Of a DNA stretch of 64,000 nucleotides, positions 3,233-61,252 are shown one piece after another; within the stretch, counting starts at the first letter, position 1, and every line of letters starts with the position of its first letter. The notes under the pieces were generated by a model. The model did no database searches and was not told where the DNA came from. It saw nothing but the letters and a program-made list of their open reading frames with translations. The DNA is from Nitrososphaeria archaeon (GTDB lineage Archaea > Thermoproteota > Nitrososphaeria > JACIWG01): positions 448,001 through 512,000 of the forward strand of contig CAVVXT010000019.1 in the NCBI GenBank assembly GCA_963752255.1, read 5' to 3'. Position numbers and translations under genes: made by a program.

Positions 3233-3883
3233 TCAGAAATCTGTACGAATTCTCGAAGGATGGGTATAGACACTCAGATATTGTCGTTTAACACAGACTA
3301 GTGTTATATGCATTTCTTTCGCCGAATCTATACCGGATTGAAGTGGAGCGACAAGCGAAACAACGATGACTACACCCACTTTTGATGCCTTCGATATTGT
3401 ACTCCTCTGTTGCCTACAAGAGGCGAACAGGATACATGTGGATAAGTCGACTTTTTTCAGTAACCCTTCACCTAAAGCCTTGTCTATTGCATTATGCCTG
3501 CCAACGTCTTCCACAAATGATACGATTTCGCCGTCGATCTTAACCAGAGCTGCAAAATGAGTGCCATGAGTTGCCTGGTAAACTTTTCCTTTTTTACTGA
3601 GCTCATTCGCAATTCTAGCTATTTCTTTAGCTTCAACCATCATCATCGAATCCGTAGATGCACTCGAAGAATATCTGGTTCGCTCAGTACGAACTTTAAT
3701 CAGTCTGACATCAGCTCGAGATCTGTTCACCAAAACTTTTTTTATTTCGTCAATCTTTTCAATCATGCCTTCAGCCATAATATGACCAAAAACAAACGCC
3801 TTCTTCTTCCCAGGGGTGATCATTGTAGAAAAAATGTGTTTGCCATTTACATAGATTGAAAAGGGTTTTTCAACGGCTATCAT
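3233..3883 (-). CDS. fdhD: FdhD/NarQ family sulfurtransferase (Mo/W-enzyme accessory protein)
   Basis: IAVEKP.SIYVNG, THGTHFAA, EDVGRHNAIDKALG. The frame stays open ~26 codons upstream without a start codon, so the true start may be lost to an indel. Confidence 0.8.
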   Translation of the reverse strand: MIAVEKPFSIYVNGKHIFSTMITPGKKKAFVFGHIMAEGMIEKIDEIKKVLVNRSRADVRLIKVRTERTRYSSSASTDSMMMVEAKEIARIANELSKKGKVYQATHGTHFAALVKIDGEIVSFVEDVGRHNAIDKALGEGLLKKVDLSTCILFASCRQQRSTISKASKVGVVIVVSLVAPLQSGIDSAKEMHITLVCVKRQYLSVYTHPSRIRTDF

Positions 3884-39281: not shown

Positions 39282-39573
39282 AGTCGATAACTGCGATATC
39301 CGACGCCGAGGTCAGGCAGAAAATTAAAAAGGAACATGAATCTTAAGAATTGATAGAAGACATTTTAAAGAAGATGAAGATATAACACAGTATAATTGAT
39401 AGCAATCACGGCAAAATGCTCTTAGTTATATTGTTCTGTAGAATAAGCCTTGTAATTGTAGGATTAGGGTTAAGTTCTGGAGTTGAAAAGATATTAGCAA
39501 CATTTGAGAAGACCAATATTTGGCAGAAAAGTTATAGTAGAACCATTTCTATTATATTAGATGGGGACACTAA

Positions 39574-40110
39574 TTGCTTGAAGGAAAAAATGTGAATTTG
39601 AGGCTTATGGAGAAAGAGGATTTGCCACTATTTGCGGAATGGTTTAACAAGCCTGAAGTCTTTGGTGAATACAATCCTTTTCATCAGATATCCAGAACAG
39701 AAGCAGAGAAGATGCTCGATACCCCTCACGAACTGAAGCCTTTCATAATAGAAAAGAAAGATGGAAGCAAAATCGGTTTTATAGCTTATTTTTACGTCCT
39801 ACATCCTGCAGGCAGGCAACTGGAAATCGGCTATTCTTTGGTGCCGAGTGAGAGGGGAAAGGGCTACTGCACTGAAGCCTCAGAGATTATGGTGGATTTC
39901 CTGTTTCTCTCTAAAGACACAATGCGTATTCAAGCCTTAACTGATTTGAGAAACGTAGCCTCTCAGAAAGTCTTAGAAAAAGTTGGGTTTAAGAAGGAAG
40001 GAACACTTCGTAAAAACTTCTTCATGAGAGGAGAATGGAGAGATGCGTATCTCTATAGTATCCTTAAGGAAGAATGGAAAGAACCTAAGATACTGACAAA
40101 GACGACTTGA
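39574..40110 (+). CDS. GNAT acetyltransferase (RimJ/RimL family)
   Basis: EIGY..RGKGY.TEA, N.ASQKVLEKVGF.KEG.LR. Confidence 0.9.
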   Translation: MLEGKNVNLRLMEKEDLPLFAEWFNKPEVFGEYNPFHQISRTEAEKMLDTPHELKPFIIEKKDGSKIGFIAYFYVLHPAGRQLEIGYSLVPSERGKGYCTEASEIMVDFLFLSKDTMRIQALTDLRNVASQKVLEKVGFKKEGTLRKNFFMRGEWRDAYLYSILKEEWKEPKILTKTT

Positions 40111-40112
40111 AA

Positions 40113-40126
40113 ATATAAGATATGGG
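40113..40126. repeat. Left target-site duplication ATATAAGATATGGG (14 bp)
   Basis: Exact copy at 42065-42078. Confidence 0.85.
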
Positions 40127-40357
40127 GGGGTTATATACAGGTCTCTAAAATTTTGACCCTTTTACTCAGCATCTGGCCTGAAAAATGTTAGCTAACTTTG
40201 AAAATCTGATTCAAACCTAAGTAAATATATCTTTTTATATAAATGATACAGTATTTTTAAAGTAAAACTGCAATAACTATTTTCCTTGTTTGATTTTGAT
40301 TAGACATGAACAAATGTATATAACTGAAGTGTTTAATTATAAGAGGACAAGAGAATA

Positions 40358-41614
40358 TTGAGCAAGAAAAAACCTGTTAAGAAAAAGATTGAAAAGAAAG
40401 TAGAGAAAAAAGTAGTCGTTCCGAAGATTGCGGCGACGCGAAAAGATGCTATCATTGGCAGCGTTCACGAGAAAATAAAGGCGTTCAAAGCTGCTCCTGC
40501 TCCCGCTGTTAAAGAAGGCGTCAAGAACGTGAAGCACTGGTTAGAACAGCAGCCTGAGGTTGAGTCTGTGGCCCTGATAGGCGATTCAGATATGACGGTG
40601 AAGTTCAAGGACGGCACTCAAGTCGGCGTGATGATGAATCGCAAGAACCTTTTCGGCGGAGGTGGCGGAAGTGGAGCATCAAAGGTAGCCCCTTCAGCTG
40701 TTCATATGCGAACCTTGAGTACCCAGCTTGACCCGCACCCGATTTCCAACAAAGCATGCGTTATAGACACCTTGTACGATGATTGGCCGGGCACAGCCAC
40801 TCCAGACACCATTGTGAGCACACTAAAGAACGCGGGCTACGAAGTGGATTTGATTAAGAACAACAATGCGAACCTGAAGTTTTACTCAAACCTAGACGAG
40901 AAAGAATACGGCATAGTCTTCATAATGGCTCATGGCGGCATGATGAACGTCAGCGGAGACAGCAAACTGCACATAATGGCAAGGCCATTTTTCACGAGCT
41001 TCCCACCTTCATCAGGTTATACAGGCGTCGGAGTATTCACGGTTGACACAAACTGCACAGCGCAAGGCTGGGCCTACGTATATGCCTTCAACAACTTGTT
41101 TGTAAGCCAGTACATGAACAAGAGATACTTCCCGAACAGTCTCATTCACTTACTAGTTTGCGAAGGCGCAAATCCCGATGCTCAAAACGATATGATTCAA
41201 ACGTTTCTCGACCGAGGCGTTGGCTGCTACACTGGGTGGACCAAGGACGCAAGCGGCACGCATGGGAGTCCAGCGGCGGTTCAGTTTTTCCAGGTGCTGT
41301 GCGATTCCGTAGCTAGCCCAACCAACACGGTGACCGACGCGATTTCGAAGATCACCGCCTCAGGGCATTCTCCCGATCCAGGCACTGGCGCTTCGCTGGT
41401 CGCATATGGACTAAGCAACATGCAGATTATTCACTGCAGCATAGTGAAAGAAGCCTCGCACATTGTGATTCAGGATTCGAGCGGAAAAACCATCAAGAAA
41501 GGCTTCCATGACATACTGGACGCCATGGAGTACTCGGAAAACCAGATAAACGCGGGCAAACATGCTTCACTGAAGATAACTGAGACAGTTGGACTTAAGA
41601 AGATTCAGTGGTAA
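40358..41614 (+). CDS. Hypothetical protein; putative clan CD (caspase/gingipain/CHAT-fold) cysteine peptidase
   Basis: Lys-rich N-terminus; GIVFIMAHGG and SLIHLLVCEG match the hydrophobic-strand-His-Gly and hydrophobic-strand-Cys dyad pattern; followed by GCYTGW. Confidence 0.5.
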   Translation: MSKKKPVKKKIEKKVEKKVVVPKIAATRKDAIIGSVHEKIKAFKAAPAPAVKEGVKNVKHWLEQQPEVESVALIGDSDMTVKFKDGTQVGVMMNRKNLFGGGGGSGASKVAPSAVHMRTLSTQLDPHPISNKACVIDTLYDDWPGTATPDTIVSTLKNAGYEVDLIKNNNANLKFYSNLDEKEYGIVFIMAHGGMMNVSGDSKLHIMARPFFTSFPPSSGYTGVGVFTVDTNCTAQGWAYVYAFNNLFVSQYMNKRYFPNSLIHLLVCEGANPDAQNDMIQTFLDRGVGCYTGWTKDASGTHGSPAAVQFFQVLCDSVASPTNTVTDAISKITASGHSPDPGTGASLVAYGLSNMQIIHCSIVKEASHIVIQDSSGKTIKKGFHDILDAMEYSENQINAGKHASLKITETVGLKKIQW

Positions 41615-41687
41615 CCAGACAAGCTCTACTAAAAACTCATTTTTTTTCTATATTAAATTCAGGTAAAATGAAATTACTCTTTTGGAT

Positions 41688-41852
41688 ATGCTCCATTACG
41701 TCCTGAAACTAGTGTATCTGACAGGTCTAACGGGTGAGGAATACACCATTTATGAGGATATGAGAAAAATCGTTCAATGGATGTTCACACTTAAACCAAA
41801 GGATGTTAGAAAATATGGAATATCGAAGCAGACATTATCAAACACAAACTGA
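41688..41852 (+). pseudogene. Probable C-terminal remnant of a casposon family-B DNA polymerase
   Basis: LTGLTGEEYTIYEDMRKIVQWMFTLKPKDVRKYGISKQTLSN resembles, from memory, the HTH-like tail (L.PKDV..GIS..TL) of casposon PolB. It lies inside the TIRs. Confidence 0.5.
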
Positions 41853-42064
41853 ATTCTGAGTGCAAATATATTACAAGACCTCTCAAGATAATAAGGGATG
41901 TACATATTTCAAGCTCTGAAAGAAAAGGTCTTTCACAAACAAGTGACCAAAGTTAGAGACAATGAAAAGAGGTCAACTATAAGAAAATTTTTATTTTACA
42001 AAAAAGTTGCTTTCTGATGCCAGTATTTAAAAGGTCAAAATTTTCCAGCAATGTGTATAACCCC

Positions 42065-42078
42065 ATATAAGATATGGG
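42065..42078. repeat. Right target-site duplication ATATAAGATATGGG (14 bp)
   Basis: Exact copy at 40113-40126; includes the last 4 nt of the tRNA fragment. Confidence 0.85.
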
Positions 42079-42113
42079 CCCAATGGGATTTGAACCCATT
42101 TTGGTTTAAGTCC
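42075..42113 (-). repeat. att-like site 2: tRNA 3' fragment (T-arm plus acceptor strand, Ile/Val-like) fused to an 11-6-11 inverted repeat
   Basis: Minus strand ATGGG-TTCAAAT-CCCAT-TGGGCCC-A at 42099-42075. Plus strand GGATTTGAACC-CATTTT-GGTTTAAGTCC at 42086-42113. No 5' tRNA half. Confidence 0.75.
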
Positions 42114-42281
42114 CTTAATTAAGTATTGATTTTTACTTTATGTGGTATATTATTTAACGATAATTGTCTTTCTCTCAATCTCCTGTCGTTAACTAACTGA
42201 AAGAGCGCACATATTCTTTTAAGGCAGAACAGAATATGTAACTTTTTAAAGTAGAACAGAAGAAGAAACTTACTGATTAAC

Positions 42282-43277
42282 ATGAAATACGTCAGATTAG
42301 GCTGGTCAGGATTAAAGGTGTCTCCGATAGCAATCGGATGCATGTCGTTCGGAAACCTTGAACCGTGGATGATCGAAAAAGAGGAGGCACGAAAGGTTGT
42401 GAACAAAGCACTGGACTTGGGCGTCAACTTCTTTGATACCGCAAACCTCTACTCCTTAGGCAGGTCAGAGGAGATTGTAGGAGAGCTTCTAAAAGACGTC
42501 CGAGAAGATGTGATAATCGCTACAAAGGTCAACAGCAAGATGGGAGAAAAGCCGAACCAGAGAGGTCTCTCAAGAAAGCACATAATGTGGCAGGTTAAGG
42601 AGTCCCTAAGAAGGCTTGGAACAGGCTACATCGACCTCTACCAGATTCACAGGTGGGACTACGAAACGCTAATAGAGGATACGCTGTCAACGTTGAACGA
42701 CCTTGTAAGAGGTGGAGTAGTTAGATATATTGGAGCGTCCAGTATGTGGGCTTGGCAGTTTTCGAAGGCGCTGTACACAAGTGAAATCAAGGGCTTCGAG
42801 AAGTTTACGAGTATGCAGAACAAGTGGAACCTGCTCTACAGGGAGGAGGAGAGGGAGATGGTTCCTCTTTGCAAAGAACAGAACATTGGAATAATACCAT
42901 ACAACCCTGTTGCAGCCGGCCTGCTGTCTGCTCGTCATATGAAAGAAGGAAAGATTGAGATTGGTAGCAACGATATGATGAGGCTTCAACCAGACTATAG
43001 GCTTGCCCCAATCTATGGAAAGCTTTACGTTGACCCCCCTGAAAACGCTGAAATCGTTAGAAGGGTTGCGGAGGTAGCACAGGGCAAGGGTGTGAAACCG
43101 ACTCAGATCGCGTTAGCGTGGCTGTTTCATAAAGGTGCTACAGCACCCATCATAGGAACCACGAAGCCTGAGCACGTGCAGGAGGCGGTTGAATCGATAG
43201 AAATAGGTTTATCCGAAAAAGAAGTCGCGTATATAGAAGAACCATACTTGCCGAAGCCCGTCAATGGACACAAATGA
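42282..43277 (+). CDS. Aldo/keto reductase (aryl-alcohol dehydrogenase-like)
   Basis: LG.SGLKVS, FFDTANLYS.G.SE, ATKV, IDLYQIHRWD, YIGASSM. Confidence 0.93.
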   Translation: MKYVRLGWSGLKVSPIAIGCMSFGNLEPWMIEKEEARKVVNKALDLGVNFFDTANLYSLGRSEEIVGELLKDVREDVIIATKVNSKMGEKPNQRGLSRKHIMWQVKESLRRLGTGYIDLYQIHRWDYETLIEDTLSTLNDLVRGGVVRYIGASSMWAWQFSKALYTSEIKGFEKFTSMQNKWNLLYREEEREMVPLCKEQNIGIIPYNPVAAGLLSARHMKEGKIEIGSNDMMRLQPDYRLAPIYGKLYVDPPENAEIVRRVAEVAQGKGVKPTQIALAWLFHKGATAPIIGTTKPEHVQEAVESIEIGLSEKEVAYIEEPYLPKPVNGHK

Positions 43278-43349
43278 TAAACTTCAGCTGTCAAGACGGA
43301 AGGTCTCATATTCATGTTAAGCGTGTTGCAAGTTTAGTGTACACTTAAA

Positions 43350-43376
43350 GTACCTATCCCGTTTGGGTTTAAGTCC
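43350..43376. repeat. att-like site 3 (degenerate)
   Basis: GTACCTATCCC-GTTTG-GGTTTAAGTCC: identical right arm, left arm 8/11 identical to site 1, 5-nt spacer. Confidence 0.45.
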
Positions 43377-43379
43377 CCT

Positions 43380-43677
43380 CTTATTGATGTTGGTTGGTCT
43401 ATAGTATTGTAACTGTTTTAGAGATTTCCTCATATATAGAGTGAACTGTAACTTCGTGGCTAACTTTTGAAGTCAATGGGGTGCCCGTTATGAAGCTTTC
43501 AATGTCTTACTTATCACAGTTGTTCTTGCCTATGTAGGTATTAGTGTTCTAATTCCTTTGAGCAATGTATTTGTACCCCTCATAGGTGGTTATAGTATAG
43601 AAATTTTTGCCACAGCTGTCTCAGCTATAGTTCCCCATTTGGAAGACCATATAAAACAATATCTTAAAATTTGTTAA
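43380..43677 (+). pseudogene. Degraded small membrane-protein gene remnant
   Basis: Hydrophobic frame YEAFNVLLITVVLAYVGISVLIP...KQYLKIC* preceded by in-frame stops; begins right after site 3. Confidence 0.3.
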
Positions 43678-43825
43678 ACCAAATACTCCTCTTGACTTAC
43701 ATTAACAGATACAGGATTCATTCTTTTCGAAGAATAATATAAAGATTGAACTAATAAAAACTTCATTAGACTAATGCTAAAATATCATAACAAATGTTTA
43801 TTATAAAAAGGTCTTTTGCCTTATT

Positions 43826-44338
43826 TTACCTTATCCCAGTATCTATGGAAATATCTAGACCAGTCGTCTCGTCCACCAAAACGCTTACATTTTTTGGAAA
43901 AACACGGTTACAGCCGATCCATTGACAAGAAGGCTTCAGGGTCACAGCATAGGTTCCTGCCTCCAGCTTAATAGAAAAGTTTCCGCTGGCAGAAAGAGGA
44001 GCATAAAAATAGTCTACACTATTTCCAGTGAACGCTAGGCTGTAGCCTGTCAGATTTTGAACCTTATTGCAGGGTTCTGTTGGGCACAGGGGGCCGATAG
44101 TAACTTGTCCTCGGACTGTTCCATAGCTGCCTGTCGTGGTTGGGGTCGTTGTGGAAGTGCTTGTCTGGGTGGTTGTTGAAGTACTCGTGGGTAAAGTGCT
44201 TGTTGTAGTTGTGTTTGTCATGGTTGGTAGAACCAATGCGTTAGCTATCACAATCACCGTCAGAGTAATAACTGCAGCGAGGATTATTGTAATATACGAA
44301 ACTCTCCTGCTGTTTACATTAGAATCGTTAAAGTTCAT
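43826..44338 (-). CDS. Membrane-anchored Thr-rich protein with carboxypeptidase-regulatory-like beta domain
   Basis: N-terminal TM, Thr/Ser linker, GQVTIGPLCP..GNFSIKLEAGTY..IDTGIR. Confidence 0.7.
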   Translation of the reverse strand: MNFNDSNVNSRRVSYITIILAAVITLTVIVIANALVLPTMTNTTTTSTLPTSTSTTTQTSTSTTTPTTTGSYGTVRGQVTIGPLCPTEPCNKVQNLTGYSLAFTGNSVDYFYAPLSASGNFSIKLEAGTYAVTLKPSCQWIGCNRVFPKNVSVLVDETTGLDISIDTGIR

Positions 44339-44355
44339 CGTATCACCACACTCGG

Positions 44356-44988
44356 TCAGCCTGTTCTTGTGAGAACCGTTATAACATATGTTCCTGAGGG
44401 AAGAGGGGAACTGAAGTTTAGGACGATGACCTGTGAACCACCTGACGCTATTGTAATAGGAAGACTTGGGTTTGATATCCCTCCATTAACGCTTGACAGT
44501 GGATTTCCGTTTACTAATATATCTGTTAAGGTCTCGTCTACGTTTCCCACGTTTAAAGCGGTTATCGTTATCTTAGTTGAGTTGATAGCGTTTACATCAG
44601 TAATTTGAATCTGTTCTGTTATCACAGTTGTAGTTGATATGATCTGTCCCACGGTTACAGTCGCTGAGGCCTCCGTTTCAGTCATAGTTATCGTAACAGT
44701 GGTTCCGACTGGAGAGTTAGTAACTATGGTAGTAGAAGACCCGGTAAAAGTCGTGGTACCAGATTGTACAGAGGTGGTTCCACTCGAAGTCTTGGGAGAC
44801 CCAGATGTAATGTAACTTGTGGAGGCGGCTATTGCTGTGGTCGTAAATGCAGTTGGGTTGGCAGTGGACGGGAACGCGCCTCGGGTGGGTTGCAGTGGGA
44901 AAAGGTAGCTTGCTGAACCAGCAAGAACTAGCGCGATTATGACAGCTATCAAAGAACCAGCAACAATCTGCTTCCTATATTCTGACAT
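44356..44988 (-). CDS. Membrane-anchored Thr-rich surface protein with pilin/Ig-like C-terminal domain
   Basis: N-terminal TM, long S/T linker, EQIQITDV..NVGNVD..I.VNG..GTYVITVLT. Confidence 0.65.
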   Translation of the reverse strand: MSEYRKQIVAGSLIAVIIALVLAGSASYLFPLQPTRGAFPSTANPTAFTTTAIAASTSYITSGSPKTSSGTTSVQSGTTTFTGSSTTIVTNSPVGTTVTITMTETEASATVTVGQIISTTTVITEQIQITDVNAINSTKITITALNVGNVDETLTDILVNGNPLSSVNGGISNPSLPITIASGGSQVIVLNFSSPLPSGTYVITVLTRTG

Positions 44989-45143
44989 ACGCTTTCTACA
45001 CCTTTAGATAGAGGAGGCCATAGATATAGTACTAATTTTAGAATAGTAGAATCGGTTGCATTCTAACTTTGATTTGGATTATCGTGAGGTCAAAATTTTA
45101 GGAGATAGAATTATTTTTAACAAATAGATGTGGAATTTGCTAT

Positions 45144-52112: not shown

Positions 52113-52785
52113 GTATCATGTCATTATTTTAGAGTTTATATAATTTTTGTAATTACTAAATTTATGGTATAATTCTAATCACAATTTAACGTATAGTCTA
52201 GCCCAAGAAGCAAATGCACTTTAACTCTTAGTTAAGTTGAATCAAAAATATGTTAAGGGGCTGCCCGTCATATTTGATTAAGAGAGGTTGTAAAGTGTGG
52301 GGAAGAATTTGTTAGGATTTCTCTGGATAAATGGCCTATTTTCTAAATGGCTGCACAGTTTTGAGGAATGCTCCAATAATTATCATTGTGACGAAACAAT
52401 TTTCCAGTTTGCCGGTTGAGAAGGCTAGTCGATAGCAAGGTGCCAGTTTAAGATTCACCTCATATGCTAGGCTTCCACTTTTTTCATCGTTATGACATAG
52501 TTCTAAGCATTTTAAATGCATATTACCCTGAGAATCCCCTATAAACTTAAATAATGCTCAATATGAGTCATTGAATATGACAAGATGGGAGAACGACTCC
52601 GTTCAAGAGAGCAGAGAATATATGCATGGAGTTCGTGAACTCTCATTTCTCAGATTCAATTATGCAATAGGATGGCAAGGAGTTAGATGGAATACGAAAT
52701 ACAACTATCAGCGTGATCACATAAACATGAATCCTACCCACACTTCACTTTCTAGTAGCCTTCTGCAATATGGAGTTGATATTAA

Positions 52786-53349
52786 ATGACTATTCCTATT
52801 AGAGTAACATGTGCACTTGATGAAGACACAGCTAGACTACTTGAAGAGATGAAAGACGAACTTAAAATCTCCCAAAGCGAACTAGTGAGAAAAGCGATCA
52901 GGTTCTTAAAAGAGTACAGAGAAATGGCAGGGGATAAGACACTCAAAAAACTGGGCATTTACCTAGATATGCTTTCCAGCGGGGAACATGTAATTCTTGA
53001 TATGGACCACTGGCTGCTCTTTCTTAAACTGATCGAAACTTCCTCTCAAAAGGACGTTTTCTGGCAAAATAATGAGGAAATCGCGAAATCCCACGCAGAA
53101 CAGTTTACTGCAAAAGGGAACTCCTTGGAAAACGTCCTCGAGCGTTTAGAGGCTTGCAATTTCTTCAAGGTAATTAAACTCTCGGATAGGGAGTTCACCC
53201 TCGTTCTGCTGTCGGAATCTTCGAAAGAGTTCGTCAAGAGGTTCTTGCTGACACTCTTGAACTCAATGGGTTTTGATGTTAGGATCAGAGAAGACTTCGC
53301 TAAGCTTCGCGTGAGCGTAACAAGTAGGGGGCCGTGGAGAGTAAAATAA
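52786..53349 (+). CDS. CopG/ribbon-helix-helix transcriptional regulator with C-terminal domain
   Basis: RVTCALDE..SQSELVRKAI; GEHVILD. Confidence 0.75.
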   Translation: MTIPIRVTCALDEDTARLLEEMKDELKISQSELVRKAIRFLKEYREMAGDKTLKKLGIYLDMLSSGEHVILDMDHWLLFLKLIETSSQKDVFWQNNEEIAKSHAEQFTAKGNSLENVLERLEACNFFKVIKLSDREFTLVLLSESSKEFVKRFLLTLLNSMGFDVRIREDFAKLRVSVTSRGPWRVK

Positions 53350-53558
53350 CCTTCATTTGGAATGACATTGGAAGAACTCATTTACTGGTTTTAGAAGTAA
53401 TAATTGAGAAGACAGAAGGAGAAAGACTAAGGAAAGGTGCGTTTAAGCAATGTTATGGATATGCTCATTTCCTTAACGCTGACTATTTTGCTATCTGCAA
53501 TTCTCGAACTCTAAGCCTATTTAGAAATCCTAGAGACAAACGTTTGGTTCTTTATTAA
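53334..53558 (+). pseudogene. Fragment resembling the type I restriction enzyme HsdR N-terminal nuclease domain
   Basis: LVLEV...AFKQCYGYAHFLNADYFAICNSRTLSLF matches the QxxxYA..a.y...N pattern; only 74 aa. Confidence 0.4.
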
Positions 53559-53705
53559 GTAATAAGAAGCATAAATTGGCTAGTAAACAACTTACCTTCT
53601 TTCTAAAGAATTGCGTGATGTATTCGAATCTAGGCCTTGTTGAGTCTACACCAAAAAAGAAACGCATTGTAATGATGTTCTCGAACAAAAGAAGAAAGAG
53701 GATGT

Positions 53706-55280
53706 TTATCGAAGACTATCGAAATCCCCTTGATCTTTTCTTGTTGTGTATCTCGTTTTCTTGTTGTTTGTTGGCTCCATGCCTGGGAATGGGAACAATG
53801 AGGAGGACTGTGTTCTCGAGTTTGCCCGGAAGTATACCAAGCCTAGAAGTAACCAAATTACTGTGCCAGCCAGTGCAAATAATGCTTCCCAAGCTGAGTC
53901 TCCACCGCCGAGCAAACCGAGCCAAACGACAACTCCAAGCATCAGGACGTTTGCGCTAAGGCCAAGAAGGGGAACTATCCGGCGTTTTAGGATTGAACTG
54001 CGCTCTTTAGCAAAGGCAAGCATCGCCACGATGTTCGTCAACCCGTAGAGTATGAAAGTGCCAACGTTTGAAAGCAAACAAATCGCTGTTAAATTTGTGA
54101 CGGAAAGGACACCGAAGGCACCGATAATCGCTGAAATCAGAGTCATCACCCAGATCCCTATTCCTGGAGTGGCGTACTGTGGATTAATCTTGCTTAGCTG
54201 CTGAGGGACTTCTGTGTCGCTGCTAATGGCATAGGTAACTCGCACGCCTGTGTTCATGCAAGCGAGAGTGGTACCGAGAATTGCCGCAAGAACGACTACT
54301 GCGACTATCATCATGAGAATGAAACCGTTTCCGCCAAGGAATACGTTTCCAAGATTGCGGACCATGTCTCCATAAGGAGCACTTGATGCTGCAGCCGCCG
54401 CTAACCCATCTTTAGGAATCCATGCTAGGAATCCGAAGTATGCGAGTAGGTATACAAAGGCTCCTTGTATTGCGAGAGAGAGAACTACTGCTCTTGGAAC
54501 ATCCTTAGGTTTTTTTGCTTCTGCTGTCAAGGCTGTGGCTGTTTCGAATCCTACCAAGACAAGTATGGCGATAGTTGCTTGAAACAATACGTGGCTAGCG
54601 TTGTGAGGAATAACTATGCTGCCGATGTTGGAGAACTCGAAGCTTAAATTGGGGTTAAGGAAGCGATATGCTAATGCCATTATTGTAACCCCTACTACCA
54701 TAGTGAGCTGGACAATGTTGAGAAGTAGGTTTGTCTTCGTTGATCCCTGTATTCCGCGGTAGGCTATGTAACCGGTTACGGTTGCAAACGCAAATGCAAT
54801 CGCTATCTGGGCGAATGGAGAAACGGCTAAACCTAGTGTCTGTAAGACCCATGACAATAGGACAGCCATGAATGCCACCATCACGCCTGGGTAAACCCAG
54901 TAATAGAGGTGAGAAAGCCAGCCGACCGCGAATTTGGCGTTGCGCGCTGAACGGTTGCTGCTGCCTCGATCAAGCCAGGCTCTTTGAGCAAAATAATATG
55001 AACTTCCTGCGCCGGATTCTGGATAACGTTTGGCCAGCCAAGCATACGAGGCAGCGGTTAGAAATGATAGGATTAAAGCTACTAAGAGCCCGAACCATAT
55101 GTCGGACGCTGTTGGGAATCCAGCAGGGTCTTTCTGAGCTGCTTGAACCTGAATGGTGATCCACAAGAACGCGCCTGGAGCTATTAAAGCCATGGCATTA
55201 ATCGTTAAGCCTGCAAGGCTCAGAGTCTTCCTCATCTTAGGGGGCTGCTGGTTTTGAATACTTGTCGTGTCACTTGCCAT
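53706..55280 (-). CDS. APC family amino acid/cation permease
   Basis: About 12 TM helices, IAPGAF in TM1, AGSSY, LVGFET..EAK, YATP. Confidence 0.87.
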   Translation of the reverse strand: MASDTTSIQNQQPPKMRKTLSLAGLTINAMALIAPGAFLWITIQVQAAQKDPAGFPTASDIWFGLLVALILSFLTAASYAWLAKRYPESGAGSSYYFAQRAWLDRGSSNRSARNAKFAVGWLSHLYYWVYPGVMVAFMAVLLSWVLQTLGLAVSPFAQIAIAFAFATVTGYIAYRGIQGSTKTNLLLNIVQLTMVVGVTIMALAYRFLNPNLSFEFSNIGSIVIPHNASHVLFQATIAILVLVGFETATALTAEAKKPKDVPRAVVLSLAIQGAFVYLLAYFGFLAWIPKDGLAAAAASSAPYGDMVRNLGNVFLGGNGFILMMIVAVVVLAAILGTTLACMNTGVRVTYAISSDTEVPQQLSKINPQYATPGIGIWVMTLISAIIGAFGVLSVTNLTAICLLSNVGTFILYGLTNIVAMLAFAKERSSILKRRIVPLLGLSANVLMLGVVVWLGLLGGGDSAWEALFALAGTVIWLLLGLVYFRANSRTQSSSLFPFPGMEPTNNKKTRYTTRKDQGDFDSLR

Positions 55281-55448
55281 CTTTTTTAGCCTCTAAAATT
55301 TCCTCTTGAAAGAAAGCGCAGGGTATTCTTCCTGTTCATCTCGCAGCTAGCGCCTCGTCTGTCGTTATCTTTTCCAATGGGAAAATTACAATTCCTTCCA
55401 TTATGATGCTCACCAATTCAATAGTAAAAAATAAAAAATGTCGAGTGT

Positions 55449-55564
55449 AATATAAAGGTAGTTAAGATTTGTTCATAACTATTGTGAAATTATCTTATAA
55501 AAATATAAAAAGGATAAATATGGATATAATATGCCCATTATGGCAATGATAATGACCTAAAATG
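55449..55564 (+). repeat. 116-bp exact direct repeat, copy 1 (promoter region ending in ATG)
   Basis: Identical to 56439-56554. Confidence 0.92.
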
Positions 55565-55612
55565 CCCAAACAAACGAAAAGGGATGGAAAGTAAATCAAT
55601 GAGGAGAAAAGG

Positions 55613-55849
55613 ATGAAAGCATACATTCTAATAAGAACAAAACCTGGAACCTCGTTGGAAGTAGTCAAGAGAATAAAAGAGAAAACCAAAGAAATGATCG
55701 CAGCAGACGCCATATTTGGCCAATACGATGCAGTCATGATTATTGAGGCCTCAGCCCTTGAGAACATAAACCAAATAGTGTACAGGACAGTTGAAAAAGA
55801 CCCAGACGTTATTCGCACGGAAACATCTATTGTGCTAGCACCTGTTTAA
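55613..55849 (+). CDS. Lrp/AsnC ligand-binding (RAM) domain protein without HTH
   Basis: AYILI, FGQYD, V.RTETSIV; 78 aa. Confidence 0.85.
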   Translation: MKAYILIRTKPGTSLEVVKRIKEKTKEMIAADAIFGQYDAVMIIEASALENINQIVYRTVEKDPDVIRTETSIVLAPV

Positions 55850-56438
55850 CCTTCAAGCAGGGATCTGGGAGTAGCTTTCAAACAAGTCGCAAGCCAATTC
55901 AGCCAGTAGAATTAGGGTCTCTGGGAAAATTCTCAGACAATCCCTCTTCGATTTTTCTAAAATACGTGGGCTTCTAGCCTCTTACGTTTTTCAGAACTGG
56001 ACCATTCATAGTTGGTTGCTAGCCAAAGTATAAGGAAATCTTGGTGGCTAAGATTTTCCCAGAAATGCATGAGTTGAGGGTCATTGCGGTACTGTCATGG
56101 AAACACATCATCATTAAAAATTATTGGAGAAGACGTTTTTCAAAGAAGAATGCCAAAAGCATTCCCTATGCATCATTTGAGGAAAGACATACTGTGGGAA
56201 AAAACTGAAAAGGGCATCTACCTTCACAGTTTTGTTCTTTAAAATCTACCAAGCGGTTTTTTAAAAAAACTGGTGTTAGCTAAAGGCCAACTCAGACAGA
56301 TGATGAGTTATCATGGTTAAATATCATTTTTGATTTCGGCACGCAGCTTTATTGTTATTACAGCTACAGAACCTATTATTACAAATGTCCAGAACAAATT
56401 TACCACGCCAAACATTATCTTATTCACCTTTAGTTTAG

Positions 56439-56554
56439 AATATAAAGGTAGTTAAGATTTGTTCATAACTATTGTGAAATTATCTTATAAAAATATAAAA
56501 AGGATAAATATGGATATAATATGCCCATTATGGCAATGATAATGACCTAAAATG
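56439..56554 (+). repeat. 116-bp exact direct repeat, copy 2 (supplies the ATG of the second AsnC gene)
   Basis: Identical to 55449-55564, 990 bp downstream. Confidence 0.92.
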
Positions 56555-56818
56555 ACAATCTTAGCTTTCGTTGATATCTTCGTGGAATCTACTGAAATGG
56601 ATGATGTCATATCATCTTTGAAGTTGCTTGAAAATCTCCTAGAGCTTTATGAGGTAACGGGTGAAGAAGATATTGTGACTTTGGTTTCCGCGGATGACAT
56701 AGAAGAGTTCAGGGAGGTTCTGAAGAACAAAATAATGAAGATCAAAGGTGTCAAAAGCACGGTTAGCTCGATTGTTCTCAAGGCTCACAAGGGGCCAAAA
56801 TGTGAAGAGGAAATGTAA
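56552..56818 (+). CDS. Lrp/AsnC ligand-binding (RAM) domain protein without HTH
   Basis: AFVDI, YEVTGEEDI, I.GVKST.S.IVL. Confidence 0.85.
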   Translation: MTILAFVDIFVESTEMDDVISSLKLLENLLELYEVTGEEDIVTLVSADDIEEFREVLKNKIMKIKGVKSTVSSIVLKAHKGPKCEEEM

Positions 56819-56946
56819 CGGTCAACGTTAGCTTGATTTCTTGATTAATAGGGTGGAAATCAAAATGCCAAAATCAATATCGCTGCTATAATGGAGGAAA
56901 GGAGTCACAGTGAACTGGTTTGTTGGCCTTTGGAGTTTCGGAATAA

Positions 56947-58605
56947 TTGATAGATGCAGTTCAAGCTCTGGCAGTAGTTTTAATACTTGGCGTGACAGTG
57001 GCTCTTGCGAAGCTGCTTGCGCCGTACATAACGCGAGTCTACACTCGAGCTCCAAGCCGTTTAGATAAGATACTGAGTCCTGTTGAGAACTTTATTTACA
57101 AACTGGGTGGTGTGAACCCTGACGAGGTGATGGGTTGGAAGCAGTACTTCCTTTCTGGCTTTCTGCTTAACGTCACCCAAATGGTAATTGGTTTTTTAAT
57201 TTTGGTTTTTCAAGGCCACTTGCCTCTTAATCCTCAAGGTTTTCCTGGCTTAAGTTGGGATTTAGCCCTTAACACGGTTGTTTCGTTTGCCACAAACACG
57301 AATCTCCAGCATTACAATGGTGAAGCCACGCTTTCTATTTTTAGTCAGATGACCGCCATTCAATTTCTTCAATGTATCTCTGCTGCGACTGGCATATGCA
57401 TGGGAATTGCCATGGTACGGGGTTTCATCGTAGGTTCCAGAGACATGGGGAACTTCTATGTTGACTTTGTTAGAACCATCACCAGAATCCTTTTGCCCCT
57501 TTGCATTATTGCTTCAGTTATTCTTGTCGCAATGGGTGTTCCTCAAAGTCTTAATGCCTCCTCTGCTGTGAAAACCGTTGAAGGAACCACACAATCGATC
57601 CTCATCGGGCCTGTTGCGAGCCTTACGTCAATTATGCAGTTGGGAACCAACGGCGGCGGGTACTATGGCGCGAACGCTGCCTATCCATTCATGAATCCGA
57701 GCCCTTACTCAGACATATTTGAGATTGCATTGATGATGCTACTTCCTTTTGCTTTGTGTTTTGTTTTCGGAGAGTTGCTTGGTAAGAGACGGGAATCTAG
57801 GCCTCTTTTGTGGGGTGCGTTAATTCTTATCGGAGTTAATTTGGCGATAGCCTCCTTTCCGAGCATTCCACTCGTTGCGCCTGGTATTGAAACGAGGTTT
57901 GGAGGTTTCATGTCCATTTTTTGGACTGTCATAACTACTGCCTTTACGACTGGGTCTGTAAACTCTTCGTTGTCGGCGATGCATCCGCTGGTGATAGTTT
58001 CGGCGTTCATGGGCATGTTCGTTCAGTCAATCCCTGGCGGAAAGGGTGTTGGCATGATGTACATGATAATGTTCATTATCATAACTGTCTTCATTGTGGG
58101 TCTCATGTCCGGTAGAACGCCTGAATACTTGGAAATTAAGATCACTGGGCAAGATGTGCTGCTTGTTATGATAACTTTTCTAATCCACCCAATTATTATC
58201 CTAATCCCTACTGTTGTCGCATATGCTTCAGGTGCGGCTTCGGCTATCGGCGTGAGCGGTAGCTCTACTGGATACACTCAGATTTTGTATGAATTTACAA
58301 CATCTGCTGCAAACAACGGTTCCGATTTCTTGGGGGCATCAGGAAACACTCTCTTCTTCAACCTGAGCACTGCCATAGTCATTTTCATTGGGCGTTATGC
58401 TCCCATCTCGATCCTTCTTGCGCTCTCGGGCTCAATGATTGGGAGAAAACGAGGCGGTACAACAGGTCTAAGGACTGACAGCCCAGTATTCACTATAGTC
58501 CTAGTCGCAAGCATCATCATACTAGTTGTTTTGACTTTCTTCCCATTCTTGGCATTAGGGCCGATTTCGTCATTCTTTAAAGGGTTGGTGAATGGTTATG
58601 GGTAA
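56947..58605 (+). CDS. kdpA: Potassium-transporting ATPase subunit A
   Basis: SFATNTNLQHY.GE, LGTNGGG, TTGSVNS, GRTPEY, SAANNGS. Confidence 0.96.
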   Translation: MIDAVQALAVVLILGVTVALAKLLAPYITRVYTRAPSRLDKILSPVENFIYKLGGVNPDEVMGWKQYFLSGFLLNVTQMVIGFLILVFQGHLPLNPQGFPGLSWDLALNTVVSFATNTNLQHYNGEATLSIFSQMTAIQFLQCISAATGICMGIAMVRGFIVGSRDMGNFYVDFVRTITRILLPLCIIASVILVAMGVPQSLNASSAVKTVEGTTQSILIGPVASLTSIMQLGTNGGGYYGANAAYPFMNPSPYSDIFEIALMMLLPFALCFVFGELLGKRRESRPLLWGALILIGVNLAIASFPSIPLVAPGIETRFGGFMSIFWTVITTAFTTGSVNSSLSAMHPLVIVSAFMGMFVQSIPGGKGVGMMYMIMFIIITVFIVGLMSGRTPEYLEIKITGQDVLLVMITFLIHPIIILIPTVVAYASGAASAIGVSGSSTGYTQILYEFTTSAANNGSDFLGASGNTLFFNLSTAIVIFIGRYAPISILLALSGSMIGRKRGGTTGLRTDSPVFTIVLVASIIILVVLTFFPFLALGPISSFFKGLVNGYG

Positions 58606-60772
58606 TGCACCTAAGATCGAACCACGGAAGAAAGATTCAGCTCCCGGAGGCGTGAAATCGGCTTTTTCAAGCAAGGTGCTGGTTGACTCAATAGTCAGAC
58701 TAAGTCCGAAGTCACTGGTCAAGAACCCTGTTATGCTGATCGTCGAAATAACATTCTTCATCGTGGCGGCAATGGCTATTGTTCCTAAGGCCTTTATACC
58801 CGTTGCGAGTCCGAGTCTGCAAATCTTCTACGTTGAAATAGCCTCCATCCTTCTTATTACGGTCTGGTTTAGTACCCTGTCGGATGCCCTTGCGGAGCAG
58901 CAGGCAAAACAAACGGCTGGAAGCTTGCGCAAGCTAGAAACAGAAGTGCTTAGCAAGAAAATCTTGACCGAGGAATGGACTAGAAAAGTTATCACGGTGA
59001 AATCAAATGAGCTCAGAAAGGACGATCTGATCCTTCTCGAGAAAGGTGACGTAGTTCCCTTGGATGCTCATGTTCTTGAGGGAATTGCTATGATAGATGA
59101 ATCTCTCGTCACGGGCGAATCCGCGCCGGTAAGGAAAGCGCCGGGGGACCCGTTGATTGGTGGTTCACGAGTGGTTAGTGATACTTTGACGGCGAAGGTT
59201 ACTACGAACCCTGGTGATACTTTCATCGATCAGATGATAAAGATGGTCGAGTCTTCGAAGAGACCGAAAACGCCCAACGAAATAGCAATTACTATCGTTC
59301 TAATTGGTCTTACTGCGATTTTCACTATAATAATAGTGGCGTTGCTTGGAATGTCTGTTACGCTTCGTCTTAATGCTGATCTTTCGGTTCTCATAGCGCT
59401 TTACGTTTGCCTTCTGCCGACAACAATAGGTGCATTATTGCCTGCAATTGGGTTATCAGGAATGTCACGATTGTACAAGCACAAGATTATTGCAAAGTCG
59501 GGCAAAGCTATTGAGACTGCAGGTGATACGGATGTTGTACTTCTGGATAAAACCGGCACAATTACTGTAGGGAACCGGCTGGCAATCGAATTTATACCGC
59601 TTGAAGGATTTACCGAACGTGATGTGGGTGAAGCAGCCTTCCTCTCGTCTTGGCACGATGATACGCCTGAGGGGCGAAGTATCCTTAGACTCGCGTACGA
59701 AAGAGGGTGGGTGCCCAACGAAATAAATGCTCTGTCAACGTCGAGAGTTCAACCATTCTCAGCTAGTACGCGGACCAGCGGAGTGCAGATAACTCAACAC
59801 TTGGGTATGAAGCTGCTGAAGGGTGGCAGATCTATCGACGAAAGGCTTCGAATCAGGAGAAAATCTTCCTCAGCCACCAAAGCAACTGTTTCTATGCCAG
59901 AACCTGAAATCGAAATAATAAAGGGTGCCCCGGAATCGATAAAGAAACTTGTGCCTTCCGTTCCTACTAATTATGACACATTAGTGGAGAAGATTTCGAT
60001 GGCTGGGGAAACACCGATAGCCATCGCACGGAACGGCAAAGCCATCGGAGTCATTCGCTTGAAGGATGTTCTCAAGGAAGGCATTAGGGGGAAAATAGAA
60101 GCTCTCAAAACCATGGGGATACGTCCGGTTATGATTACCGGAGATCAGCCTTTGACCGCAAAGAGCATTGCGCATGAGGTCGGAATCTATGAACACGTGG
60201 CCCAAGCGAAGCCTGAGGACAAGTTCAGCATCGCCAAAAAGGAGCAAGCTGAAGGTCTTATTGTAGCTATGATAGGTGATGGTACTAATGACGCTCCAGC
60301 CCTTTCGGTTGCTGATGTAGGTCTGGCCATGAATTCTGGGACTGAGGCAGCGAAAGAAGCTGCGAACATGGTTGATTTGGAATCTAATCCTGCAAAAATA
60401 ATTGACGTCATCATGCTGGGGAAACAATTGCTTATGACCCGTGGGGCTGTTACTACTTTCAGCATTGCTAATGATGTTGCAAAATATTTCGCTATAATGC
60501 CTGTTCTGTTTGGTGCTGCCATTCCCCAACTTCAGGCGTTGAACATACTTCATCTGGGGCTAAAGAGCGCTGTCTTGTCTGCATTGATATTTAATGCGAT
60601 CATCATACCGTTGCTGATCCCTCTTGCGATGCGAGGCATCGAGTTTAAGCCTACCGATACCATGACTCTTTTCCTGAAGAATGCGTTGTTTTATGGTGTT
60701 GGCGGTGTCATCGTGCCTTTCGTAGGAATTAAGCTGATCGACCTGCTTCTCATAGGAGTTTTCCACGTTTAG
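58592..60772 (+). CDS. kdpB: Potassium-transporting ATPase subunit B
   Basis: NPVM, TGESAPV, CLLPTTIG, DKTGT, GDGTNDAP, TTFSIANDVAKYF. Confidence 0.97.
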   Translation: MVMGNAPKIEPRKKDSAPGGVKSAFSSKVLVDSIVRLSPKSLVKNPVMLIVEITFFIVAAMAIVPKAFIPVASPSLQIFYVEIASILLITVWFSTLSDALAEQQAKQTAGSLRKLETEVLSKKILTEEWTRKVITVKSNELRKDDLILLEKGDVVPLDAHVLEGIAMIDESLVTGESAPVRKAPGDPLIGGSRVVSDTLTAKVTTNPGDTFIDQMIKMVESSKRPKTPNEIAITIVLIGLTAIFTIIIVALLGMSVTLRLNADLSVLIALYVCLLPTTIGALLPAIGLSGMSRLYKHKIIAKSGKAIETAGDTDVVLLDKTGTITVGNRLAIEFIPLEGFTERDVGEAAFLSSWHDDTPEGRSILRLAYERGWVPNEINALSTSRVQPFSASTRTSGVQITQHLGMKLLKGGRSIDERLRIRRKSSSATKATVSMPEPEIEIIKGAPESIKKLVPSVPTNYDTLVEKISMAGETPIAIARNGKAIGVIRLKDVLKEGIRGKIEALKTMGIRPVMITGDQPLTAKSIAHEVGIYEHVAQAKPEDKFSIAKKEQAEGLIVAMIGDGTNDAPALSVADVGLAMNSGTEAAKEAANMVDLESNPAKIIDVIMLGKQLLMTRGAVTTFSIANDVAKYFAIMPVLFGAAIPQLQALNILHLGLKSAVLSALIFNAIIIPLLIPLAMRGIEFKPTDTMTLFLKNALFYGVGGVIVPFVGIKLIDLLLIGVFHV

Positions 60773-60784
60773 GGATGATTAAAA

Positions 60785-61252
60785 ATGGGTTTGGAAAAAA
60801 AGGAAAAATGGAGTTTCAGACCGATTGTTACTCTTGCAGTTGTTTCGCTGATAATTTGTGGTATGCTTTTCCCTCTTTTCATAACCGTGCTAGGTCAGGT
60901 GTTTTTTCCGTATCAGGCAAACGGCGAGATTGTGCAGTCCAATGGAGGGGCTGTAGGGTCAAACTTGATTTCCCAAAATTTTTCTTTGCCCATTTTCTTT
61001 CATGCACGGAATGATTCTGCTTCAGGAGTCGATCCGGATATCACGGTTCAAGATGCCTACTCGCAGATACCGAGAATAAGTAATGCAACCGGTATCTCAG
61101 CTGATTCCTTGATTGTCCTAGTTAACCAAAATAAAGAGGGTGCTTTGTGGATTTTCGGAAGCCCTTACGTGAATGTGCTCCGCATTAATCTTGTCCTCAT
61201 TAAATCGTATCCTTCCTTTTACAGCGGTTTCTCTGGAAAAAGGAACGGTTAG
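60785..61252 (+). CDS. kdpC: Potassium-transporting ATPase subunit C
   Basis: FPYQANG, GS.LI.Q.F, SASGVDPDI, VNVL.IN. Confidence 0.93.
   Translation: MGLEKKEKWSFRPIVTLAVVSLIICGMLFPLFITVLGQVFFPYQANGEIVQSNGGAVGSNLISQNFSLPIFFHARNDSASGVDPDITVQDAYSQIPRISNATGISADSLIVLVNQNKEGALWIFGSPYVNVLRINLVLIKSYPSFYSGFSGKRNG

Follow-up and report, generated by a model that had tools for sequence, protein, structure and literature searches.

Casposons attract interest as the origin of the machinery for CRISPR adaptation. The natural casposons that we found described in the open-access literature are large and encode cas1 and polB, and the decay products described there are solo repeats or scrambled copies. Small forms are represented by engineered mini-casposons of 1-4 kb, which consist of ends and cargo only. 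According to excerpts of the source papers, such constructs were integrated by casposases in vitro (PMC8464041; PMC5137440) and in vivo in Methanosarcina mazei (PMC10359463). A search of open-access papers for non-autonomous casposons, miniature inverted-repeat transposable elements (MITEs) of casposon origin and mini-casposons found these engineered constructs only. Here we analyse a 1.9-kb element at positions 40127-42064 of a 64-kb stretch of DNA (the window) from a soil/peat archaeon of the class Nitrososphaeria, whose whole assembly comprises 2.1 Mb in 19 contigs and is 94.7% complete. A first-pass annotation made from the letters of the window had proposed an internally deleted casposon that lost cas1 and most of polB and kept its ends and a cargo gene. 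The ends, the site geometry and a polymerase remnant support this proposal, and the element is very probably a non-autonomous, internally deleted derivative of a family-2-like casposon. Open-access full texts (supplementary tables excepted) yielded no account of comparable small casposon derivatives from nature.

The closest described systems are the family-2 casposons MetMaz-C1 of M. mazei, AciBoo-C1 of Aciduliprofundum boonei and NitNCS1-C1 of Ca. Nitrosotalea okcheonensis. In the excerpted text of PMC6977970, these casposons are flanked, like the element, by a 14-bp target-site duplication that is made up of 4 nt of a tRNA and 10 AT-rich nt. For the M. mazei casposons, excerpts of PMC6977970 and PMC4779613 specify the last 4 nt of the tRNA and the following 10 nt, and the latter source describes the first four positions of the duplication as conserved and the last five as AT-rich. 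Family-2 ends finish with a 3' C, and the target needs the duplicated segment together with ~30 bp of the tRNA (PMC6977970, in excerpt). Targeting of a tRNA end has also been recorded in Thaumarchaeota, for NitNCS1-C1 (PMC6563490). The element shares with family 2 the G-run ends, which give a 3'-C transferred strand, and a related repeat (PMC6977970 and PMC10359463, both in excerpt). It also shares a polymerase of the family-2 kind, of which it keeps the tail alone. In contrast to family-2 casposons, it has no cas1, intact polB, HNH or helix-turn-helix (HTH) gene, measures 1.9 kb as opposed to ~8-20 kb, lies at a 25-nt tRNA fragment and not at a whole tRNA gene, and carries one unrelated passenger gene.

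The boundaries of the element are defined by an exact 14-bp duplication. The window contains two exact copies of the 14-mer and no more, at 40113-40126 and at 42065-42078, and allowing one mismatch did not change this number (chance expectation 0.03; none of 100 shuffles had two or more matches). The left copy starts 2 nt past the stop codon of a GNAT acetyltransferase gene. Terminal inverted repeats of 36 nt adjoin the duplication with zero spacer, at 40127-40162 on the plus strand and at 42029-42064 on the minus strand. They match at 29 of 36 positions (81% complementary) and both open with GGGG, so that the transferred strand of the left end finishes with 3'-CCCC. The 32-nt end was found at only these two places in the 2.1-Mb genome, even with up to 8 mismatches, and BLAST revealed no second copy of the element there. 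Inside the repeats, an AT-rich non-coding leader (40163-40357, plus strand, GC 0.30-0.37) holds no open reading frame (ORF) with a family match. It is followed on the plus strand by one long ORF at 40358-41614, the 418-aa cargo gene, and by a short ORF at 41682-41852 (41667-41849 from stop to stop). All coordinates of the first-pass annotation proved correct, and its exact duplication, its inverted GGGG ends and its count of one cargo gene plus a short remnant were each recovered.

Next to the right copy of the duplication lies the 3' part of a tRNA. The minus strand from 42099 to 42075 matches, at 24 of 25 positions, the 3' end (T arm and acceptor) of a tRNA-Met(CAT) gene on another contig of the same genome (G000:C7:34526-34550), which ARAGORN called in intron mode with a 32-nt intron. 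By BLAST, the likeness to this locus continues for ~10 nt past the end of the tRNA, with 94% identity over 34 nt. No complete tRNA was detected in the window by ARAGORN, with or without introns, or by Rfam at the gathering threshold. Read on the tRNA strand, the duplicated 14-mer consists of the last 4 nt of the tRNA sequence, which form the overlap with the fragment, followed by 10 AT-rich nt. The proposed placement of the duplication at a tRNA 3' end is thus confirmed and equals the family-2 geometry. The 25-nt tRNA-Met fragment is the recognition part of the insertion site.

We searched 301 genomes of the class for further ends at such sites, using a tRNA 3' end like that of the window, any 10 nt and GGGG, with no similarity demanded past the GGGG. 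Matches with up to 3 mismatches occurred in 40 genomes and were mostly plain tRNAs with the mismatches falling in the GGGG. Eight loci outside the window had an exact GGGG. Four of them are clearly related ends (G092:C25, G082:C22, G082:C111 and G121:C15), one is probably related (G275:C16) and three are unrelated. Genome G082 contains five copies of one 16-nt end, three of which lie exactly 10 nt past three different tRNA ends, each with a different 10-mer; a further tRNA-adjacent copy is found in G082:C95. In an ungapped alignment of the relatives, the window ends and the M. mazei repeat (A5), positions G2-4, T6-A7-T8-A9, A13 and A23 are common, and A11, C17, A21-22, A24 and C32 are nearly invariant. 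The repeat of MetMaz-C1 is printed together with its 14-nt duplication in PMC10359463 (available in excerpt). In this alignment the published repeat agrees with the G082:C22 end at 22 of 31 positions and with the left end of the window at 15 of 31. A matrix built on eight ends from outside the window, with the GGGG left out, ranked the window ends first (left) and seventh (right) among the 7,522 GGGG-starting 32-mers of the genome. As the search required nothing beyond the GGGG, this likeness was not built in. By alignment and by rank, both arms belong to the terminal repeats of a casposon family.

The inner portion of the left end is also matched exactly over 14 nt by a sequence 3 kb rightward in the window, at 45088-45101 on the minus strand. 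This sequence has no partner and sits in sequence shared with a genome of the same genus (G001), where one base is changed; it was taken as chance. In viral contigs, two scans with the end pattern gave no match and one probable chance match, and a scan for relatives of P0078 gave none.

The insertion offset of the window is the same at a tRNA-Glu in a Nitrosopumilus genome (G146) and at the tRNAs in G082 and G092. Several ends in Nitrosopumilaceae adjoin degenerate tRNA-like 3' fragments and not tRNAs, which parallels the situation in the window. In G197, G135 and G122 (L154, L156 and L158) these fragments comprise a T-loop and acceptor-like sequence ending in AGCA, without an ARAGORN tRNA call, and the adjoining 14-mers share AGCA plus 10 nt.

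A site of this type could also have been used by a different enzyme. In that case the element would be the remnant of a tyrosine-recombinase integrative element, and the 14-bp repeat would be the att core at a tRNA gene. Indeed, tRNA 3' ends are classic att sites and 3' tRNA fragments are typical integration scars. The closest homologue of the cargo gene (L062, 86% identical) sits between two direct degenerate tRNA-like fragments, and the casposon target of M. mazei overlaps the att site of a tyrosine-recombinase element, as an excerpt of PMC4779613 reports. However, just 4 tRNA nucleotides fall within the repeat of the window, and att sites are not characterised by inverted ends that abut the repeat perfectly. 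Apart from the cargo gene and the polymerase remnant, 40127-42064 contains no ORF with a family match, and no integrase was found there. The use of one offset at different tRNAs with different 10-mers fits a transposase, not the identity of attP and attB. We consider this origin of the element highly improbable. A tyrosine-recombinase mechanism may, however, explain how the tRNA fragment itself came to this place.

One complete relative is fully delimited, in Nitrosopumilus sp. G146, a member of the same class. On its contig C4 a tRNA-Glu(CTC) ends at position 1444, and an exact 14-bp duplication (4 nt of tRNA plus 10 nt) at 1441-1454 and 13359-13372 encloses an 11.9-kb element. This element has related ends and encodes a 413-aa Cas1 (PF01867, 1.2e-58) and a 918-aa polymerase. 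The latter was not recognised directly by Pfam, PHROGs or a PDB sequence search. Regular expressions located DxE, Nx3FD, Yx3D, DxxSMYP and YCDTD in it, which we take to be exonuclease and polymerase motifs. Among its ~2,000 homologues many carry PF00136, and it is 49% identical to a protein of Methanocella arvoryzae named DNA polymerase B. Its identity as a polymerase is based on these motifs and on the named and annotated homologues.

Cas1 proteins of the type with a C-terminal extension were detected in 51 of 371 class genomes (E<=1e-20). Around their genes we found the same family of ends, often in tandem arrays spaced by exactly 14 nt. This indicates that tRNA-end casposons with a C-terminally extended casposase are far commoner in Nitrososphaeria than the single example of a 2019 survey. 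The suggestion of the first-pass annotation to look for the ends in relatives, and for a full element with cas1, thus succeeded as to a related family and a complete Cas1-bearing casposon; close copies of the window ends were not found among 401 genomes of the class. The class also contains Cas1 genes of another kind. In G121 and G275, genes for Cas1 proteins of 357-379 aa lie next to ef-2 and are of the family-1 type. Family-1 casposons, known from thaumarchaea such as Ca. Nitrosopumilus koreensis AR1, resemble the element in host class and in being Cas1-driven transposons with terminal inverted repeats. They make a 13-bp duplication, have ends that finish in TTCTA and a casposase without an HTH (PMC8464041), and usually target ef-2 (PMC6563490).

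Reduced elements were also observed among the relatives. In G082:C111 a Cas1 fragment lies 220-440 nt inside a tRNA+10 end. It is 83-90% identical over ~40 residues to the closest of 13 recovered archaeal Cas1 proteins, of which the full-length ones measure 391-408 aa, and reaches E = 0.0047 with the Pfam Cas1 profile. At this locus (L122 2390-2745), casposase residues ~52-94 are followed directly by the C-terminal tail of the polymerase in another frame and then by the end. It is an internal deletion that fused two core genes. In G146:C4 an element of 2,130 bp (L159 13373-15502) with related ends stands in tandem with the 11.9-kb casposon. Its only long ORF encodes a 612-aa CBS-TrkH transporter, and its outer 14-mer agrees with the shared 14-mer at only 9 of 14 positions. 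In G197:C1 an element of 372 nt (L152 9371-9742), composed of two ends and an ORF of ~73 codons, lies between two larger elements and is set off from both by 14-nt spacers. In G082:C95 the distance between an end and the start of an MFS transporter gene is 235 nt, comparable to the 231 nt between the cargo gene and the element end in the window.

Two further candidates were rejected. A 19-kb 'casposon' in G092:C66, where two patterns with 2 mismatches surround a Cas1 gene, turned out on reading its ORFs to be a CRISPR-cas locus with a Cas4-Cas1 fusion. An 18/20 inverted match in G082:C95 falls in a TnpB-like ORF and was treated as unrelated. TnpB-like ORFs lie within 1-2 kb of the ends in G082:C95 (L128 4474-4749) and G082:C22 (L131 33-755), an assignment made by eye from zinc-finger and GIDLG motifs.

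The short ORF links the window to these casposons. It reads toward the right end on the plus strand, is cut short and stops 215 nt from that end. In related elements the terminal ORF is likewise the last one before the end and reads outward. BLASTP matched the short ORF to the terminal ORFs of G092:C34 (8e-10) and G082:C22 (3e-9). The 242-aa terminal ORF of G092:C34 in turn aligned over its full length with residues 669-918 of the G146 polymerase (5e-28). Comparison of the window ORF with a profile of 14 full-length polymerases by hhalign gave a probability of 93.6% and an E-value of 2e-7, with the match covering profile positions 836-877 of 912. These results support the view that the short ORF (41667-41849) represents a remnant, ~60 codons long, of the C-terminal tail of a casposon family-B polymerase. 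The PolB remnant suspected at first pass is thereby upheld. The element accordingly contains sequence derived from a core gene; of a family-B polymerase it holds this C-terminal remnant alone.

Other searches with this ORF were less informative. It had no Pfam or PHROG match. In an all-against-all HMMER search, the 56-aa ORF recovered itself and four proteins of 1,751-2,669 aa over stretches of 20-27 residues; three of these were scanned and all three carry PKD domains, and no polymerase came out of this search on its own. The terminal ORF of G092:C34 obtained only low scores (<=0.78) in a search of the ESM Atlas. The PF03175 profile matched nowhere in the genome, yet the control search matched nowhere either, which makes this negative uninformative. 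We also considered that the short ORF might be a remnant of the C-terminal HTH of the casposase. An hhalign comparison of the terminal-ORF alignment (A3) with the casposase alignment (A4) gave E 1.1e-4 at a probability of 57%, the L132 ORF matched P0078 by BLASTP at E 0.003, and there were weak tblastn matches. The window ORF itself was not significantly similar to the G132 casposase (BLASTP, E 19). As the polymerase C-terminus matched much more strongly, this assignment was abandoned.

The remnant also bears on whether the element had a casposon parent at all. Terminal inverted repeats and a target-site duplication are generic features of transposons, and a few insertion sequence (IS) families give duplications longer than 10 bp. 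The element might thus be a MITE-like, cargo-carrying derivative of a DDE insertion sequence that makes long duplications. Moreover, fragments of a DDE transposase (PF01609, PF13546) lie just inside a related GGGG end in G092:C25. However, this frameshifted DDE element (L120 2465-3856) is bounded by 29-nt inverted repeats of its own, at 2465-2493 and 3828-3856, which are unrelated to the GGGG end. The DDE element is nested and does not own that end, and the idea that the GGGG ends are those of a DDE insertion sequence was rejected. In the genome of the window there is no other copy of the ends and hence no partner IS. Ends of this family are found together with Cas1 and PolB genes and in the 4+10 geometry at tRNAs, and the element itself holds the remnant of a casposon polymerase. 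The DDE explanation, which the first-pass annotation had named among the points that could overturn its reading, is largely refuted, as no DDE element shares the ends in this genome or in the 401 class genomes; we regard it as very unlikely. The resemblance to MITEs is that the ends are retained, the transposase is gone and an enzyme would be needed in trans. Unlike MITEs, the element would descend from a Cas1-casposase parent, and it shows a much longer duplication, site specificity for a tRNA end and a full-length cargo gene.

Several observations weigh against a casposon derivative at this site. The BLASTP comparison of the window ORF with the single G146 polymerase was not significant (E 2.7), and the link between the two is drawn through the profile comparison and the intermediate sequence. 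The window ends are the most divergent of the end family, with matrix scores of 8.5 and 3.1 as against 26-36 for the members of the model. Their own pattern (<=3 mismatches) was present in no other of the 401 class genomes and in none of 33 loci that hold a homologue of the cargo gene. The element is single-copy in its genome, neither an empty site nor a second insertion site was seen, and the origin of the tRNA fragment at the site is unexplained. No Cas1 (PF01867) was detected in the genome or in the same-genus genome G001, and none of the nine genomes of the family to which the window belongs has the C-terminally extended type. Cas1 as such occurs in 150 of 401 genomes of the class (counting the unpublished genomes G131, G230 and G326) and in 5 of the 9 of the family. 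We fetched four of these five family loci. Each has a 335-aa Cas1 beside apparent cas genes, one of them also beside a repeat with a 61-nt period; by their ORF content, as distinct from hidden Markov model searches, these Cas1 genes look CRISPR-type.

The lack of a casposase was further confirmed in the genome, which gave no match to the P0071 type, and in the element, where no ORF matches Cas1. The element thus does not encode the Cas1 of an autonomous casposon. The loss of cas1 claimed at first pass agrees with the negative PF01867 search of the genome. A casposase in the lineage, whose absence it had listed among the points against its reading, was found in the class but not in the genome, the genus or the family. 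As there is no Cas1 in the genome or genus and no casposase-type Cas1 in the family, and as the element is single-copy and found at the same site, we regard it as non-autonomous. With its genome lacking a casposase, it now persists as a fixed passenger locus that is probably immobile. Mobilisation in trans, as suggested at first pass, is only a possibility.

Read with the published biochemistry, the observed features (end sequences, 14-bp duplication, geometry of the site, polymerase remnant and lack of cas1) point to insertion by a casposase. The casposase would have recognised the last ~25 nt of the tRNA-Met-like sequence and the following 14 bp. At the fourth-last base of the tRNA sequence, the 3'-C ends of the element would then have been linked to the target, one to each strand and with an offset of 14 bp, and gap repair would have generated the 14-bp duplication. 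Today the element retains both ends, ~60 codons from the 3' end of polB and a single passenger gene, for the protease, with its own upstream leader. Two courses of events are conceivable: a full casposon may have inserted and later decayed in place, or a small form may have inserted by means of the casposase of another element. One copy at one site does not separate a move of the small form from decay in place.

That a full-length, protease-carrying casposon lost cas1 and most of polB in place, and that the small form was never mobile, has in our estimate a roughly even chance. The element is single-copy and the genome has no casposase. Peat/soil metagenome contigs with few differences bridge the left junction in three studies (X1, X2 and X6) and, in X1, also the right junction at the same position. 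Among the 10 contig joints listed, none corresponds to an empty site or a circle, though contigs cannot show the absence of such forms. Full casposons are known to carry variable cargo: behind its polymerase tail, G092:C34 encodes an HpyAIV-type restriction enzyme and a methylase, a ClpP-like protease and Fic. The loss of core genes is seen in G082:C111, where part of Cas1 runs directly into the polymerase tail. However, the layout of end, leader, gene, polymerase tail and end recurs in the 2,130-bp element of G146, which equally fits insertion of a small form. A broader idea, which we hold only tentatively and consider somewhat less probable than decay in place, is that units of 0.4-2 kb composed of end, leader, gene and end act as natural non-autonomous 'cargo shuttles', integrated in trans at tRNA ends and at tRNA-like pseudo-sites and sustained in Nitrososphaeria by casposons whose casposase is C-terminally extended. 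Such shuttles would move single host-useful genes between archaeal lineages, and the window element would have arrived small and been stranded by the loss of its helper casposon. Among the cargo observed up to now are genes for a TrkH transporter, an MFS transporter and, in the window, the caspase-like protease.

As an internally deleted casposon, the element also differs from the decay products on record. Excerpts of PMC4779613 describe solo terminal repeats in M. mazei, and elements without terminal repeats or target-site duplication in Methanococcoides burtonii, as decay products left at target sites. In contrast, the window element retains both ends and an exact duplication around an apparently intact, conserved cargo gene. 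It shows that casposon ends can persist as a minimal transposable cassette and that genes left behind by casposons at tRNA-like sites can be retained by the host. It is also a natural counterpart of the laboratory mini-casposon, the two being alike in their ends and cargo; the latter is a construct, whereas the window element occurs in nature, and that it moves in its small form is only a possibility. The related ends are ready substrates for experiments on casposase specificity.

The cargo gene (40358-41614) encodes a protein of 418 aa without a match to any Pfam, NCBIfam or PHROG family. It has 64 homologues with 39-97% identity, in metagenome-assembled genomes (MAGs) labelled Bathyarchaeota, Methylarchaceae, Methanothrix, Halobacteriota, Promethearchaeota and others. 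In an alignment of 27 sequences His192, within an H-G-G motif, and Cys268 were invariant. An AlphaFold2 model reached a mean pLDDT (predicted local distance difference test) of 82. In Foldseek its top matches were gingipain R (5.8e-6), SAVED-CHAT, Csx29, MALT1, separase and caspases, at a probability of ~1 and with TM-scores of only 0.3-0.37. By model and alignment, a clan-CD fold and a His...Cys pair are both present, and we read the protein as a predicted clan-CD (gingipain/CHAT/caspase-like) cysteine protease. None of the 33 fetched homologue loci had end-like motifs (<=2 mismatches) flanking the gene as in the window, which marks the cargo gene as a passenger and not as part of the transposition machinery. 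This conserved and unannotated clan-CD family, with members in MAGs of Nitrososphaeria, Bathyarchaeia, Methanothrix, Halobacteriota and Asgard archaea, merits a study of its own.

The closest genomic homologue of the cargo gene lies at L062 5673-7360, on a 1.69-Mb contig of a Candidatus Bathyarchaeota MAG. It is located between its two tRNA-like 3' fragments, which have the same orientation, and lacks casposon-type ends. One of the fragments scored 21.9 bits in Rfam, below the threshold of 29. This locus may be the scar of a different integrative element with the same gene.

In its genome the element is located downstream of the GNAT acetyltransferase gene and upstream of an aldo/keto reductase gene. 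Contig C15 of G001 is collinear with the window on both sides of the element, as far as 39359 and from 45037 onward, and the 5.7-kb island in between (39360-45036), element included, is missing there. G001 does not present an empty site of the element alone. Besides the element, the island carries the GNAT gene, the tRNA fragment, the aldo/keto reductase gene and genes for two Thr/Ser-rich membrane or secreted proteins, and its junctions show an imperfect direct repeat of ~17-20 nt. The aldo/keto reductase gene (42282-43277) has at least four paralogues in the same genome (including contigs C6 and C3) and several in G001 (contigs C13, C27 and C14), with 70-81% DNA identity in both genomes. A second stretch of the window that is missing from G001, 52328-61227, measures ~8.9 kb; here the alignment passes directly from 52327 to 61228, and the two aligned parts overlap by 10 nt.

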